NCBI GenBank assembly: GCA_044226625.1
Contig: JBGAGQ010000097.1
Location: 1 to 16,547, forward strand
Origin: Thermoanaerobaculia bacterium
Lineage (GTDB): Bacteria > Acidobacteriota > Thermoanaerobaculia > Multivoradales > UBA5704
Direction: 5' to 3'
DNA length: 16,547 nt
Both the position numbers and the translations under genes were made by a program. The notes beneath the pieces were generated by a model, which was given only the letters and a program-made list of their open reading frames with translations, made no database searches and was not told the origin of the DNA. Shown here one piece after another: positions 9,317-13,722 of this stretch (the first letter of the stretch is position 1; the number at the start of each line of letters is the position of its first letter).

Positions 9317-12250
9317 TCACGACGCCAACGCTGCCTCGGCGTCCTCCAGCTCCCCCAACCGCCTCCCGTAGCCGTGCTTCTCGATCAACCGGCGGGCCTC
9401 CGCCAGGGCCTCGCGGTCGCCGAACATCCGGCCGCGGTAGAGCGCGATGTCGGCGAGGAACAACGGCATCGGGCCGCGCTCGGCGATCTCCTGCGCCTCG
9501 GCCAGGTCGGCGCGGGTGGCTTCGGGGTTTCCCAATTCGAAATGCAGCCAGGATCGGGTGAGAAGACCCCCAGCGATGAATTCGAGAGCGCCCGCGCGGC
9601 GGAGGCCGTCCAGGGCCAACTCGATCTCGGCTTTCGCGGCGGCTGGGTCCGAGCCTTCCAGGCTCGATCGATAGAGCGTGGCGCGGCCGAGGGTCAGTTG
9701 GTCGAGGGCGATGTCGAGAAGCCAATGATTGTTCCGCGCAAACTCAATCGCGTAGGCCGCCCGCTCCTCGACCTCGCGGATCGCCTCGAAGTGCTCCGCC
9801 CCCGCCGCTTCCGCTCCCCCTTTCCGACCCGCCGCACGCTCGGCAGCGCCGAGCAGAAGGTCGCAGTACCGGAAGCCTCCGAGCGAGGAGAGCCGCGGGT
9901 ATTCCGGCTGAAACTCGGCCTGCATCCCCTCCGCCTCGGCGAAGAGCGTCCGCGACTCACCCACCCGGCCCAACTGGTGCAGCGCGTCGGCGCGGACCGT
10001 TCGGTCAGCCATCCGCTCGAAGGCATCCCCGCTCCGGTCGGCGAAGGTCACGGAGCGTGCCGCGTCCTCCGCGGACCGGGCGACCTCTCCCAGCGTCAGC
10101 TCCAGCTCGCTCAAGTTGGAGGCGCGGATCGCAGCGGATTTCCAGTTCTCCTGGGCGATTCCCATCTCGAGTCCCGCCCGCAACGGCTCCAGGGCCTCGG
10201 TCAGCCGGCCCAGGGCGCGCAGGCGGAAGGCGGCCGCGCTCAGCAGCCACGCCTGGGCGGCTTCGGAGAGGGCGGGCGAGACGCGGCCCCAGGGCGGATC
10301 GAAAAAGCAGGCCACGGCCCCTAGGTCGGCGCCAAAGGCTCCGAGCTTCTTCACGACGAACGCTTCGGCCCCGCGTGAAATGCGATCCAGGTAGATCCCG
10401 TCACACGCCTCCTGCTGCCGCCCCGCGTGGCAGCCGTGGGCGACGGCCTGGTAGAGCGGCTGGAGACCTTCGAGCGTGTCGGGCTGGTGAGGGGTCGAAT
10501 CCCGCAGGTGCTCGAATAGCCGCCCGTGCGCGGAGCGCCAGGATTCCGGGTTCTTCGTTTTGAGCTGCACGGCGAAGTAGTCGCGGACGAGCGGATGGGC
10601 GTCGAGGGTCTCGCCTTCGCTCGACGCCAGACCCCGCGCCGCGAGGCGCGAGACGGTGAGGTTCCATTTCGTCTCGGACATGCCGACGAGCGGACCGGTC
10701 AGACCCTGGATGGCCGGCTCCTTCCGCAGCGCGGCCAGACACTTCTTGTCCGCCGGCCGGTCGAACAGGCCAAGCAGCCGAAGCGCGGCAAGCTCGCGGG
10801 AGGCCTCGTCTTTTCCCTCGTTGACAAACCACCTTTCATAGGCCGCGATTACCCGGAACGCGTGACCGCCTTGCTCTTCTTGATCCGCCTCGTGGAGATC
10901 GACGAGATCGACTCTCCGAATGTCTCCCTCGAAGCCGTCTCGCAGGAAGGTGCCGAGAAGGCTCAAGGTAAGCGCGTGGCCTTGGACCTTCTCGACCACG
11001 GCTTCCTTCTCCTTCCTGTTCCCCTTAACCCCCAGCTTTTCGAGAAGATCCACCCCGGCGGCCGTGCTCAGGCGCTCCAGCTTCCACTCCGGCGCCGTCG
11101 TGGTCCGAAAGCGAGCGAGATCCTCGACACTTTCTCGCGTCGTCACCACACAGAGGCCGGGGTTGTTCCCAGCTAGGCCCCGAAGAAGAGCAGCCACGCC
11201 AGGATCTTTCACCTGTCCGGCCGTCGCCTTCGGACCGGCGCTTGGATATTGGAGCGGTTCCAGACCGTCGAGGACCAAGAGCGCCTTCCGTCGCGCCACG
11301 AGCTCCGCCAACCTCGCGCCCTTCTCCCAGCCGGACATCGAACTGGCCGCGATCCTCTCGCCCTCCTCACCGCCGAAAAACCGAAGCGCCGCGTTCACGA
11401 ACGGCTCGCCGGAAGCCGAGCCCTCCTCCCTCGTCCCCTGGCTGTAAAACGACCAGTCGAAATAGTCCGACCCGCCGAGATCTTTCTCCGCCGCCCACTT
11501 GCCGACTAACGACGTTTTGCCGACGCCGCCCCAGGCGACGAGGGTGACCACGCGGACGTTTGGATTGGCCCACGCGACATCCAAGGCGGCGCATTCTTTC
11601 TCTCGGCCGATCAGCTCTTCGACGACGTGGGTCAGGCGGGTGGGGGCGGCCTTCCGCTGTATTTCGACGACCTTGGGCTCGGCGGAAAGGGTGTTGAAAA
11701 TCGTAACGTTTCCCAAGACGCTCCCGCCGATCGCGGCTCCACCCGGTCCGGCAGAAACAGTCGTCGAACTTACTTCCTGCGGCGCACTTTGAGTTCGCCA
11801 GATCGAAGGCCAATACTTCGGTCCAAGCCGACGAAGCAGCTCCGGTCGCGCCTTGATCGCTTCCCAGATCTCGTCCCATGACCAGACTGCAACTCGGAAC
11901 CCACCGTCGCTGATCTGCCGTGCCCGCTCCTGGACAGCTTGAGCACGCGGGCCGGTCGTGGCGACGATGAAAAAACTCAACGAGGGAGAAAAGCCGCGGG
12001 CCTTTCCGACTTCTTTCTCCAGCTCATCCACGGTGAGCTTCGAGTCGACCTGCGCGCTCTTCTGTTTGCACTGGATACCAACCCAGCTCCCGCCGTCGCG
12101 CCCGTAGACGTCAACCCCGGCTTGCGGCTGGCCGGATCGGCCATTCTTCTGTGCGTCGCTTGTGGGACCCCAGATCTCTCGCCAGAGATCGAGGCAGAGC
12201 GACTCGAACTCGGAGGGATCCTCCAGCGGCGGCAAGGAATCGACGCTCAT
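9317..12250 (-). CDS. Mrr-like PD-(D/E)xK nuclease + STAND P-loop NTPase + TPR-like protein (Avs/NLR-like), about 977 aa
   Basis: N-terminal EFESLCLDLW...GRSGQPQAGVDVYG...GIQCKQK (D...QxK); Walker A AWGGVGKTS; Walker B LLVLDGLE; VVTTRE; GHALTL (GxP-equivalent); LDAHPLVR (MHD-like); C-terminal helical repeats (LRALGRLTEA, LTLGEVARS, LHQLGRVGES). Start at MSVDSL chosen; the ORF is open to 12316. Confidence 0.85.
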   Translation of the reverse strand: MSVDSLPPLEDPSEFESLCLDLWREIWGPTSDAQKNGRSGQPQAGVDVYGRDGGSWVGIQCKQKSAQVDSKLTVDELEKEVGKARGFSPSLSFFIVATTGPRAQAVQERARQISDGGFRVAVWSWDEIWEAIKARPELLRRLGPKYWPSIWRTQSAPQEVSSTTVSAGPGGAAIGGSVLGNVTIFNTLSAEPKVVEIQRKAAPTRLTHVVEELIGREKECAALDVAWANPNVRVVTLVAWGGVGKTSLVGKWAAEKDLGGSDYFDWSFYSQGTREEGSASGEPFVNAALRFFGGEEGERIAASSMSGWEKGARLAELVARRKALLVLDGLEPLQYPSAGPKATAGQVKDPGVAALLRGLAGNNPGLCVVTTRESVEDLARFRTTTAPEWKLERLSTAAGVDLLEKLGVKGNRKEKEAVVEKVQGHALTLSLLGTFLRDGFEGDIRRVDLVDLHEADQEEQGGHAFRVIAAYERWFVNEGKDEASRELAALRLLGLFDRPADKKCLAALRKEPAIQGLTGPLVGMSETKWNLTVSRLAARGLASSEGETLDAHPLVRDYFAVQLKTKNPESWRSAHGRLFEHLRDSTPHQPDTLEGLQPLYQAVAHGCHAGRQQEACDGIYLDRISRGAEAFVVKKLGAFGADLGAVACFFDPPWGRVSPALSEAAQAWLLSAAAFRLRALGRLTEALEPLRAGLEMGIAQENWKSAAIRASNLSELELTLGEVARSAEDAARSVTFADRSGDAFERMADRTVRADALHQLGRVGESRTLFAEAEGMQAEFQPEYPRLSSLGGFRYCDLLLGAAERAAGRKGGAEAAGAEHFEAIREVEERAAYAIEFARNNHWLLDIALDQLTLGRATLYRSSLEGSDPAAAKAEIELALDGLRRAGALEFIAGGLLTRSWLHFELGNPEATRADLAEAQEIAERGPMPLFLADIALYRGRMFGDREALAEARRLIEKHGYGRRLGELEDAEAALAS

Positions 12251-12320
12251 CTCGCACGTTTCCGGAAACAGCGCAAAGCGTAACACTGTGAAGACCCGAA
12301 CGTCGGGCGACGGCAACGCC

Positions 12321-12326
12321 TATAAT
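12321..12326 (+). promoter_or_regulatory. Consensus -10 (TATAAT) positioned for a leaderless transcript
   Basis: TATAAT-CCGGAC-ATG: 6 nt between the hexamer and the MNT start codon, leaving no room for a Shine-Dalgarno sequence. Confidence 0.65.
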
Positions 12327-12332
12327 CCGGAC

Positions 12333-12659
12333 ATGGCGCCATCACAAGCTCTGTCTCGCCTGGGTGCTTCGACCTCCGAGCTCAACGCCTTCTGCCAACG
12401 GTGGGACGTCGAGACGCTGGAGCTGTTCGGCTCCGCCCTTCGCGCCGATTTTGGACCGGCAAGCGACGTCGATCTCCTCGTTCGGTTTCGCGGCGGCGCG
12501 CCCTGGAGCCTGTTCGAGATCTACGACATGGAGCGCGAGCTGGAGGCGATCTTCCGCCGGCCCGTCGATCTCGTCGAACGGCGCGCGGTTGAAAAGAGCC
12601 GAAACGCGTTTCGGCGCGACGAGATCCTCCGCGACGCCGCCCTGCTTTATGCAGCGTGA
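12333..12659 (+). CDS. Minimal nucleotidyltransferase (MntA-type antitoxin of a HEPN/MNT module), 108 aa
   Basis: FCQRWDVETLELFGSALRADFGPASDVDLLV (GS-x10-DxD), ELEAIFRRPVDLV, NAFRRDEIL, LLYAA are all typical MNT-family features. Confidence 0.9.
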   Translation: MAPSQALSRLGASTSELNAFCQRWDVETLELFGSALRADFGPASDVDLLVRFRGGAPWSLFEIYDMERELEAIFRRPVDLVERRAVEKSRNAFRRDEILRDAALLYAA

Positions 12660-12735
12660 CCTGGCCTACGTGAACGACATCGCTCTCTCGGGGTGCCGCG
12701 GCACCCTACATCAGGTGGGTCCGAGAAAACGATAG
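12649..12735 (+). pseudogene. Truncated HEPN (DUF86/HepT-type) toxin remnant
   Basis: ATG overlaps the MNT 3' end; MQRDLAYVNDI resembles the typical DUF86 N-terminus; the frame stops after 28 aa with no R-x4-6-H motif. Confidence 0.65.
12691..12706. repeat. Perfect 16-bp palindrome GGGTGCCGCGGCACCC
   Basis: Self reverse-complementary; sits where the HEPN-like sequence ends. Confidence 0.8.
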
Positions 12736-12831
12736 TTTTCCGGGAACTTTCTTTTTCGTGGGCAGATCGGGACCTCAGGGGGCGATCGGGGAGGAAATAA
12801 AGAGGCTCGCCAAAAACTATCGTTTTCTCGG
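12721..12831. repeat. Perfect 19-bp inverted repeat with 73-nt spacer (MITE-like or long hairpin)
   Basis: CCGAGAAAACGATAGTTTT (12721-12739) and AAAACTATCGTTTTCTCGG (12813-12831) are exact reverse complements and AT-rich in a GC-rich context. Confidence 0.85.
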
Positions 12832-12888
12832 GGGCACCGGGTGTATGGTTCCGGCGTTCCTCTCCGGTTGGCCGCTTCACCCGTCCAT

Positions 12889-13189
12889 GACCACCGCTGT
12901 TCTGCTGCGCGTAAGCGGTGGCTCCGGGCAGATCTTCGGTTGGCGGCTCCAGATCACTGGTGAACCGGACCGGATCACCAGTGGCCTGCTCCGGCCCACC
13001 GGTGTTCACGTTCAGATCACTGCTTGCGCGGGCGGGACCACTACCGATCTCGTCCGGATCACTGGTGGCGCCGTCCGAATCAGCACCTATCGGGGCCGGA
13101 CCACCTCTGGCCGGATCCCGATCAGCGGTGGCCCGCTCTCGATTACCGGTGATCTCGGCCCGATCACTGGTCGTCCGAACGGGACCCAC
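12889..13189. repeat. Degenerate tandem array of 21-bp units, consensus roughly GATCACYGGTG-N-rich-CCG
   Basis: GATC/GACC-type unit starts at 12889, (12910), 12931, 12952, 12973, 12994, 13015, 13036, 13057, 13078, 13099, 13120, 13141, 13162, 13183, exactly 21 apart. Confidence 0.85.
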
Positions 13190-13190
13190 C

Positions 13191-13232
13191 GAAAAGCGAA
13201 GCACCGCCCCGTCGGGTTGGACGGAGCGGTGC
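13191..13232 (-). terminator. Intrinsic terminator of the small exported-protein gene
   Basis: Minus strand GCACCGCTCCGTC-CAACCC-GACGGGGCGGTGC (13-bp stem, one U.G pair) followed by TTCGCTTTTC, about 50 nt after the stop at 13284. Confidence 0.65.
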
Positions 13233-13283
13233 GGATCGAGGCGAGCTTTCCGGAGGATCTCGCTGGGCGCGTAGGAGTGGGGC

Positions 13284-13646
13284 CTACGCGTGGCCGAGGA
13301 GCGCGACGTCGGTCGCGGTCATCGAGGTGCCCTGGGTGGTGTAGCTGACCTCGACCTTTTCTCCGACCTTGAGGTCGCTGACCGACGCCGACTTGCCGTG
13401 GGAGGTGATCTTCGCGCCGGCGAGGGAGAAGGTGTCGGTGCCCTTCTTGGTCTCGACCACCAGCGTCGAGGACGTGGCGTTGACGGAGGTGATCTTGCCG
13501 ATCGCCTTGCCTGTCGTCGCCTTGGCCGTGGTGGCCGCGGTGGTGGCGAGCGGATGGCTCGCGGGAGCGGTGGTCGCGGCGAAGGTGGGCAGCGCCAGGG
13601 CGGTCAGGGCGAGGGCGGCGGCGTAGGTGAAAACCTTTTTCAACAT
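13284..13646 (-). CDS. Small exported OB-fold-like protein (DUF5666/CusF-like pattern), 120 aa
   Basis: Signal peptide MLKKVFTYAAALALTALALPTFA, Ala/Thr linker, then GKITSVNATSSTLVV...SDLKVGEKVEVSY...ATDV; AAAGGGAG RBS 6 nt before ATG 13646; strong GC3 codon bias. Confidence 0.82.
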   Translation of the reverse strand: MLKKVFTYAAALALTALALPTFAATTAPASHPLATTAATTAKATTGKAIGKITSVNATSSTLVVETKKGTDTFSLAGAKITSHGKSASVSDLKVGEKVEVSYTTQGTSMTATDVALLGHA

Positions 13647-13722
13647 GGGCATCTCCCTTTCTTTATGTCGTTCTCGGGCTTTCGGAAGCCCGTCCCGGTC
13701 ATCGGCCGGCGACCACCGAAAG

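Follow-up and report, generated by a model that had tools for sequence, protein, structure and literature searches.

The 16,547-nt stretch analysed here (the window; positions 1 to 16,547 of contig JBGAGQ010000097.1, assembly GCA_044226625.1, from a Thermoanaerobaculia bacterium) possesses an array of degenerate 21-bp repeats between positions 12889 and 13182. The array fills a gap which is limited on the left by the decayed remnant of a HepT toxin gene with a long hairpin and on the right by the terminator of a convergent gene. An earlier note on this DNA had considered the array as a phased protein-binding array, a non-coding RNA or a decayed gene of heptad repeats. The analysis revealed a circular palindrome in the repeat unit, and the array is tentatively interpreted here as a phased lattice of protein-binding sites. 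The features of the locus are as follows.

9317..12316, minus strand: gene for a 999-aa protein with Mrr_cat and NB-ARC/STAND NTPase matches (Pfam Mrr_cat E 8e-4, NB-ARC E 7e-4, both below cut-off)
12330..12659, plus strand: gene for an MNT-type nucleotidyltransferase, antitoxin partner of HepT (NTP_transf_2 6.6e-14; PADLOC PDC-S09 4e-22)
12649..12735, plus strand: remnant of a HepT (DUF86) toxin gene, N-terminal part (7/11 identical to the plasmid DUF86 protein P0009, E 0.003)
12690..12860, no strand: long imperfect hairpin with 58-nt arms and a perfect 20-bp A/T-rich stem (12720-12741 with 12809-12830)
12782..12832, plus strand: possible middle remnant of HepT (AIGEEIKRLAKNYRFLG; 7/17 against P0009 residues 46-62, E 0.032; weak)
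12846..12879, no strand: displaced copy of array units 2-3, found by alignment and repeat search and followed by a 9-nt insert (12880-12888)
12889..13182, no strand: the array, 14 in-register 21-bp units with consensus GATCACCGGTGGTCCGGTCCG
13183..13203, no strand: supposed 15th unit, not a member of the array (6-10/21 matches to other units)
13201..13232, minus strand: intrinsic terminator of the convergent DUF5666-like gene (13-bp stem with 10 G-C pairs, tail TTCGCTTTTC)
13284..13652, minus strand: gene for a small secreted DUF5666-like protein, facing the array in convergent orientation (Pfam DUF5666 at E 0.004, short of the cut-off)

The gene of the 999-aa protein and the MNT gene together represent the defence-like patch. 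The 999-aa protein had no match in PADLOC. In its make-up it looks like an anti-phage fusion of a nuclease with a STAND NTPase. The MNT antitoxin gene appears intact, and its product also matched MntA_antitoxin (5e-10, below cut-off). There is an 11-nt overlap between the start of the HepT remnant (ATG at 12649) and the stop of MNT, identical to that of an MNT/DUF86 pair on a Synechococcus plasmid. The similarity to HepT ceases near 12690, while the possible middle piece (AIGEEIKRL..., from 12782) is situated in the next frame and is collinear within 2 nt. Neither piece was recognised by Pfam, NCBIfam or PADLOC. The RX4HXY region of HepT is not recognisable in 12649-12832, and the intact DUF86/HEPN toxin gene which should follow MNT in a type VII pair is missing. 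On the basis of these sequence matches, the HepT partner of MNT may be regarded with weak to moderate confidence as a dead, decayed gene.

The 170-nt hairpin overlies the decayed HepT remnant, and its perfect stem corresponds to the 19-bp inverted repeat mentioned in the earlier note. Coding sequence of HepT (..LAKNYRFLG..) seems to make up the right arm of the hairpin, and the displaced copy of units 2-3 reaches, out of register, into this arm. The stem may have originated from inverted duplication or quasi-palindrome correction rather than from insertion of a mobile element. Direct repeats marking the boundary of an island were not found.

On the other side, the array ends 18 nt before the terminator, which bounds it on the right. 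The DUF5666-like protein starts with MPMLKK and has a signal-like N-terminus, and the G+C content at third codon positions (GC3) of its gene is 0.94-0.98. This gene adjoins, and is divergent from, an operon of a histidine kinase and a sigma-54 activator, with which it likely forms a local regulon. A sigma-54-type -24/-12 element, TGGCACGACCCATGCT, is situated at 13738-13723 on the minus strand, 71 nt upstream of the DUF5666-like ATG, and shows one mismatch to the sigma-54 consensus. As the element is on the far side of the DUF5666-like gene, a role of the array as enhancer of the neighbouring activator was rejected.

Register and symmetry of the 21-bp units

Autocorrelation over 12889-13203 gave base identities of 0.490, 0.546 and 0.540 at lags of 21, 42 and 63 nt, compared to 0.27 in 500 dinucleotide-preserving shuffles (z 8.9, 10.1 and 10.0), in agreement with the strict 21-nt register noticed earlier. 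The same region showed no signal at lag 3 or lag 6 (z 0.6 and 0.7). When the whole window was scanned for lag-21 identity, the top three 210-nt windows were all located within the array. A unit-by-unit matrix distinguished 14 in-phase units in 12889-13182. The earlier count of 14-15 units is thereby settled at its lower value, since the stretch 13183-13203 matches the units about as little as 21-mers from the flanks outside the array do. A weak match to the others was also found for the unit at 12910. The mean identity between units is about 52%, and even the best pair shares no more than 16/21 positions, so the observation that no two units are identical was found to be correct. Tandem Repeats Finder reported only 2.1 copies at 78%, which indicates that the array is too degenerate for ordinary repeat finders. 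The local G+C content around the array is 0.64-0.67 (0.65) while that of the window is 68%.

The identity between units remains flat with distance, at 9.9-12.1/21 for units 1-11 positions apart. This excludes a higher-order period as well as recent homogenisation, and a higher-order structure of 42 or 63 nt was rejected on this ground. Within 12889-13182, 89 departures from the consensus were counted in 294 positions and not a single indel, the drift of the units from the consensus being about 30%. The description of the array as indel-free is true for this interval but fails at the left edge, where 12846-12879 matches 12918-12951 in 25/34 positions (74%; hand count on the alignment) with one 1-nt gap and one 9-nt gap. 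The same displaced copy was picked up as a direct repeat with 16/19 matches. The array has therefore grown by block duplication and takes indels at its edge.

The unit is a circular palindrome, an observation which is absent from the earlier note. If the consensus is read as a circle, 9/10 position pairs are complementary under one reflection, and only 0.11% of 20,000 random 21-mers of the same composition reached this value (p 0.0011). In linear form, the consensus parses into an imperfect 14-bp palindrome, with GATCACC and GGTGRYC on the two sides of the dyad, and a 7-bp G+C spacer, CGGWCCG. As a consequence of the circular symmetry, dyad axes recur every 10.5 bp. The sequence itself follows this pattern. 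The best 19 of 463 reflection centres all fall on a single 10.5-nt lattice, with Watson-Crick complementarity of 0.46-0.59 compared to 0.27 +/- 0.08. A position-weight matrix built from the plus-strand units placed every unit in phase 0 on the plus strand and in phase 14 on the minus strand. The idealised core GATCACCGGTGATC has nine matches in the window at up to 3 mismatches, seven of them inside the array, where 1.15 were expected, and none of 200 shuffles reached nine.

The symmetry resides in the consensus and not in compensatory pairs, as 71/140 within-unit cells are complementary compared to 75.1 +/- 4.6 when the right halves are permuted among units. This fits a protein which reads the consensus better than a hairpin. 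No single reflection centre dominates, with 12969 and 13116 tied at 0.59. In the absence of a within-unit pairing excess and of a standout centre, covariation gives no support to a specific hairpin, and one long hairpin spanning the array was rejected because many centres tie.

The tetranucleotide GATC occurs 10 times in the 294-nt array while the window mean is 3.58 per 294 nt. In a scan of all 294-nt windows, a number of which include part of the array, counts as high as 10 were reached, so GATC enrichment is weak as a special signal of the array. GATC is abundant throughout the window (203 in 16,547 nt, about 12 per kb), and the array has only about 3 times the local mean. The abundance across the window is probably an effect of codon usage (GAG ATC, CGA TCG).

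Coding and RNA readings of the array

Three frames are open over the array, as had been claimed: two on the plus strand (12674..13348 and 12915..13274) and one on the minus strand (12647..13318). Three candidate heptad frames were analysed. These are ITGxxxR on the plus strand, with an ATG at 12887 in the longer plus frame, xATSDx in the open minus frame, and RSxPPVI on the minus strand, which contains three stops. The palindromic nature of the unit explains why three frames stay open and why the plus 'ITG' and minus 'TSD' frames share codon boundaries. A protein-coding heptad repeat, present or decayed, would agree with several features, the three open frames among them. The period is a multiple of three and so is the 9-nt indel, and the plus frame runs on from the HepT middle remnant. 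In our reading of the translations, variation in columns 3, 6 and 9 leads to conservative exchanges, namely I/T, T/S and G/A in the plus frame and I/V, V/L and P/A in the RSxPPVI frame. A 21-bp array of 13.6 copies in Salmonella phage Sasha does encode heptads, of the type AEPPVAR; its unit matches the array consensus at 12/21 positions, a level expected by chance (p 0.16).

Codon usage is against a heptad gene. A score trained on 4023 codons from the Pfam-supported genes of the window gave log-odds of -0.04 bits per codon for the plus heptad frame and -0.20 for the minus frame, while 67 windows of 300 nt from real genes gave 0.48 +/- 0.17 and the best wrong frames 0.08 +/- 0.17. The GC3 of the array is 0.72 compared to 0.80-0.94 in real genes, and the core genes of the window show 0.88-0.94. 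Codons which are rare in the host (GGT, ACT, GAT, AGT) are fixed by position in the array. Glycine at heptad position 3 is encoded by GGT in 8/8 cases (host use 11%), aspartic acid in the minus frame by GAT in 9/11 (host use 21%), and ACT and AGT occur five times each (2% each in the host). The ratio of nonsynonymous to synonymous differences (pN/pS), calculated by the Nei-Gojobori method over all unit pairs, was 1.14 in the plus ITG, 1.32 in the minus TSD and 1.18 in the minus RSxPPVI frame, in each case within the null obtained by permuting each column among units. It had been noted that third positions of the plus heptad frame look more conserved than first and second. By our column averages, the mean information is 0.88 bits at third, 0.89 at first and 0.64 at second positions, so the claim stands for the second position and fails for the first. 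The ATG at 12887 has no Shine-Dalgarno sequence, and the plus open reading frame (ORF) crosses the terminator and continues 64 nt into the convergent gene. The minus frame lies downstream of that terminator (13232-13201, 13-bp stem, T-rich tail), as the earlier note had described.

Homology searches did not identify a protein family either. An exhaustive HMMER (phmmer) search, which covered the plus frame only, gave four matches at E <=1e-3 among 1.84 billion representatives, with E values between 1.8e-5 and 8.8e-4, and nothing at 1e-10. These matches are without exception large unrelated repeat proteins and were rejected as homologues. Two of them resemble translated eukaryotic minisatellites and were not used further. 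Word-indexed protein searches with the plus frame, the minus frame and the minus frame against longer proteins returned nothing at E <=0.01. No significant family was found for the array in Pfam (39 ORFs and each array frame), NCBIfam or PADLOC, and the only match to the array frames, ComC (E 0.057 and 0.28), was rejected as under its cut-off. In the ESM Atlas, the recognition values of the two frames were 1035 and 1020 with no usable match, while 91% of known families reach 2300. Single-sequence AlphaFold2 models of two frames had pLDDT of 34.4 and 59.6 and pTM of 0.18 and 0.11, and such poor models did not warrant a fold search. The decayed heptad gene proposed earlier is thus disfavoured in every frame by codon usage, pN/pS of at least 1.14, lack of homologues and poor folds. 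We regard a heptad gene, present or past, as unlikely, the coding reading being largely excluded, and we are reasonably sure that the array is a non-coding element at the level of DNA.

As a further alternative, the array may be a structured non-coding RNA (or single-stranded DNA), for example a sponge or a processing substrate, and maybe together with the upstream 170-nt hairpin. The predicted folding of the array RNA is indeed better than that of shuffles, with -157.8 kcal/mol (z -4.4) on the plus strand and -155.6 kcal/mol (z -3.7) on the minus strand, and on the plus strand the centroid is close to the minimum-free-energy structure. The adjacent hairpin folds with -81.2 kcal/mol (z -4.2) on the plus and -67.2 kcal/mol (z -4.7) on the minus strand. 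The good folding energy of the array is, however, a by-product of the palindromic consensus, as RNA from either strand of such a unit folds better than shuffles. No Rfam family reached its gathering score in the window, with three chance-level matches (E 4.7-8.2) in 12550-13400, no sigma-70-like promoter was found in 12300-13700, and the unit-specific compensatory pairing is missing as described above. A tRNA scan of the sequence found nothing. In type III toxin-antitoxin RNA (ToxI-like), near-identical tandem repeats are followed by a terminator and then by a toxin gene on the same strand. Here, the units are degenerate, and the array runs into the convergent gene on the plus strand and into the hairpin and antisense MNT on the minus strand. 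The non-coding RNA suggested earlier therefore gained no specific support, and we consider it very improbable.

Proposed binding lattice and possible neutral drift

The explanation we favour, at somewhat less than even confidence, is that palindromic binding sites for a protein form a phased lattice here, similar to a centromere or an iteron array, and that this lattice is probably the vestigial maintenance site of a mobile element. In the proposed lattice, imperfect 14-bp palindromes (GATCACC and GGTGRYC about the dyad) would alternate with 7-bp G+C spacers with one dyad per helical turn, and since dyads recur every 10.5 bp all sites would be on one face of the helix. A dimeric, sequence-specific DNA-binding protein would coat the lattice cooperatively, as in sopC, parC, parS of pSM19035 and iteron arrays. 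To our knowledge, cooperative binding by a dimeric protein is the only known reason for tandem palindromes with one dyad per turn. The lattice would probably have come in together with the MNT/HepT-STAND islet. By now it would probably be a vestige, because the window contains no partner gene and the units have drifted by about 30% from the consensus. The analysis demonstrates the periodicity, the symmetry, the block duplication and the absence of a coding signal, and we infer protein binding, a mobile origin and a vestigial state.

The degree of constraint on the units bears on this lattice as well as on its strongest rival, a neutral and decaying minisatellite which was never functional. In this view, the dead HepT gene left junk DNA behind, within which slippage or block duplication multiplied a palindromic 21-bp seed. 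The earlier note had described a semi-conserved first part and a variable remainder of the unit. A modest difference of this kind was found, the best-kept contiguous block being columns 19-21 plus 1-11 (14 columns) compared to columns 12-18 (p 0.02), which is not expected of neutral drift. The overall heterogeneity of columns was not significant, with a variance of 3.71 compared to 2.90 +/- 0.86 under uniform decay (retention 0.58; p 0.17), so uniform decay reproduces the observed spread. The values of pN/pS around 1.1-1.3 in open frames and the flat identity with distance fit drift as well, and the displaced 74% copy of units 2-3 with its 1-nt and 9-nt indels represents ordinary minisatellite dynamics. 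That dead DNA can survive at this locus is evident from the HepT remnant, while bacterial deletion bias should clear long-dead DNA, a point which counts against a neutral relic. The indel-free 294-nt array contrasts with the neighbouring HepT remnant, where the frame changed within about 140 nt. Its 294 nt carry 89 substitutions and no indel, and with two random indels in 339 nt we estimate the chance of an in-phase run this long at about 0.05. A random seed would also rarely be a circular palindrome at 9/10 pairs. A neutral relic also agrees with the lack of a binder gene in the window and of relatives in the plasmid and phage sets and in the related loci described below. On this evidence, a neutral origin is a possibility that we take seriously and consider somewhat less likely than the lattice. 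If true, the array would be ordinary, and the only lesson would be that, in G+C-rich DNA, three open frames and an imitation of heptad proteins on either strand result from a palindromic repeat which is not a gene.

Several results weigh against the binding lattice. The evidence for present-day constraint on the array is thin and at most modest, in view of the non-significant column heterogeneity. The two indels at the left edge show that the phase is not inviolable, the identity between units is flat at about 10-12/21 with distance, and the repeats of known centromeres and iterons as a rule show much higher conservation than the roughly 52% found here. A family scan found ParA, ParB, ParR, Rep or small ribbon-helix-helix proteins in none of the 39 ORFs of the window, so no partition operon is adjacent and the array is an orphan. 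Relatives were not detected by blastn in distant mode with 12660-13290 against 72,556 plasmids and 50,697 phages, nor by tblastn with the plus and minus frames against the plasmids. A contig search with the neighbouring histidine kinase identified 21 loci with up to 38% identity (Acidobacteriota, Thermoanaerobaculia and others), and none of them has the array, the hairpin or DUF5666, MNT, STAND or aconitase neighbours. The likeness of GATCACY to the omega heptad WATCACW, taken up in the next section, extends over five bases and could be due to chance. The phased binding array of the earlier note is accordingly strengthened by the circular palindrome and the 10.5-bp dyads and weakened by the modest constraint and the missing binder gene in the window.

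Synteny in the 21 kinase loci is limited to the kinase-regulator pair. In tblastn of the plus frame against the phages, one phage (two records) was found at E 0.07, Salmonella phage Sasha, whose repeat was rejected as a relative because it is coding and matches the consensus at the chance level given above. In the literature, the 12-mer core was encountered in three papers, none of which deals with bacterial repeats, and no paper was found on plasmid arrays in which 21-bp direct repeats are spaced by two turns of the helix.

A live version of the lattice may also be considered. In this case, a dimeric protein encoded elsewhere would coat the fourteen palindromes into a nucleoprotein filament serving the defence islet, either as a centromere-like or silencing anchor or as a methylation-state pad read by the Mrr-nuclease/STAND protein. 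The methylation pad is suggested by the unit being full of short palindromes of the methyltransferase type (GATC, CCGG, ACCGGT, CGGWCCG). We regard this live version as very improbable.

Comparison with known systems

The array is an orphan and not a new kind of system, and it was compared with the known classes of tandem and palindromic repeats. In CRISPR arrays, near-identical repeats of about 23-50 bp are separated by unique spacers of similar length. Here the whole period is 21 nt, the units share no more than 16/21 positions and the repeat finder saw 2.1 copies at 78%, so a CRISPR array was rejected, in line with the earlier view that this is not a canonical one. REP/BIME elements are dispersed in many genomic copies, each a self-pairing stem-loop of 20-40 nt. 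The array is extragenic like these elements and shares their position at the 3' ends of convergent genes, being situated between the HepT remnant on the plus strand and the DUF5666-like terminator on the minus strand. Within the window, the best position-weight-matrix score outside the array is 13.5 compared to 14-24 for most units, and the units have no within-unit pairing excess.

The repeat of phage Sasha is found in gp81, a hypothetical protein (NC_047786.1 52088-52369, other strand). In the phage genome, it is located close to the end, some 1 kb downstream of a ParB-like gene. Its period equals that of the array and its copy number (13.6) is nearly equal, whereas its copies are 99% identical and coding and those of the array are degenerate. 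Judged by sequence, it is an analogue, apparently a young coding array, and not a homologue.

Theta-replicating plasmids such as P1, R6K and RK2 have iterons, directly repeated units of about 17-22 bp whose spacing is about two turns of the helix and which sometimes titrate the initiator in arrays of 5-9. They are asymmetric and well conserved, and their neighbourhood includes a rep gene, DnaA boxes and a region rich in A+T, none of which is present here. The array resembles them in direct repetition, unit length and helical spacing. It differs in having symmetric units about 52% alike, no Rep family in the window and a local G+C content of 0.64-0.67.

Plasmid centromeres share more with the array. 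Strict helical phase is present, with 14 units at exactly 21 bp, and a dyad-symmetric core is present at the level of the consensus only (9/10 pairs, 10.5-nt lattice). In the sopC centromere of plasmid F, a 43-bp unit is repeated 12 times in direct orientation, and every unit contains a 16-bp inverted repeat to which SopB binds (PMC3177203). Like sopC, the array is tandem and phased, with about a dozen direct repeats. In both, the core of the unit is palindromic, the rest is variable or lacks this symmetry, and a whole number of helical turns makes up the period. The array differs in its period of 21 bp instead of 43, in units only about 52% alike, in lacking sopA/sopB-like genes nearby, and in being chromosomal with no sequence similarity in the plasmid set.

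The parS of pSM19035 contains 7-10 contiguous 7-bp WATCACW repeats, direct or inverted, each bound by a dimer of the ribbon-helix-helix protein omega (PMC9499535). The two are alike in their 7-bp modules (21 = 3 x 7) and in their link to a toxin-antitoxin locus. The left heptad of the array, GATCACY, has an exact ATCAC in 5/14 units by our count. The next heptad is its inverted copy, which corresponds to the high-affinity arrangement of converging heptads (-><-) of pSM19035. The parse into heptad, inverted heptad and spacer with ATCAC as heptad core may be taken as a lead and not as evidence. Every third heptad of the array is an unrelated G+C spacer, while pSM19035 needs at least four contiguous gapless repeats. 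The array also has no omega- or delta-like gene and its host is high in G+C.

In the centromere of pCXC100 from Leifsonia xyli, a ribbon-helix-helix ParB binds to nine 9-bp repeats which are weakly conserved and follow one another without interruption (PMC3074162). These repeats were first noticed merely as a weak periodicity, and the binding is cooperative and phased (PMC3074162). The pCXC100 repeats are 9 bp long, non-palindromic and situated upstream of parA-parB, while those of the array are 21 bp long and palindromic, with no par genes. Both come from high-G+C hosts, and in both the repeats are so degenerate that a weak periodicity alone reveals them. Centromere and partition architectures have been reviewed (PMC5016525). 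If the binding lattice is true, the array would represent a chromosomal, high-G+C instance of the centromere/iteron design with an unusually clean geometry beside a dead toxin gene, and it would be of use both for recognising an old mobile element and as bait in the search for the binding protein.

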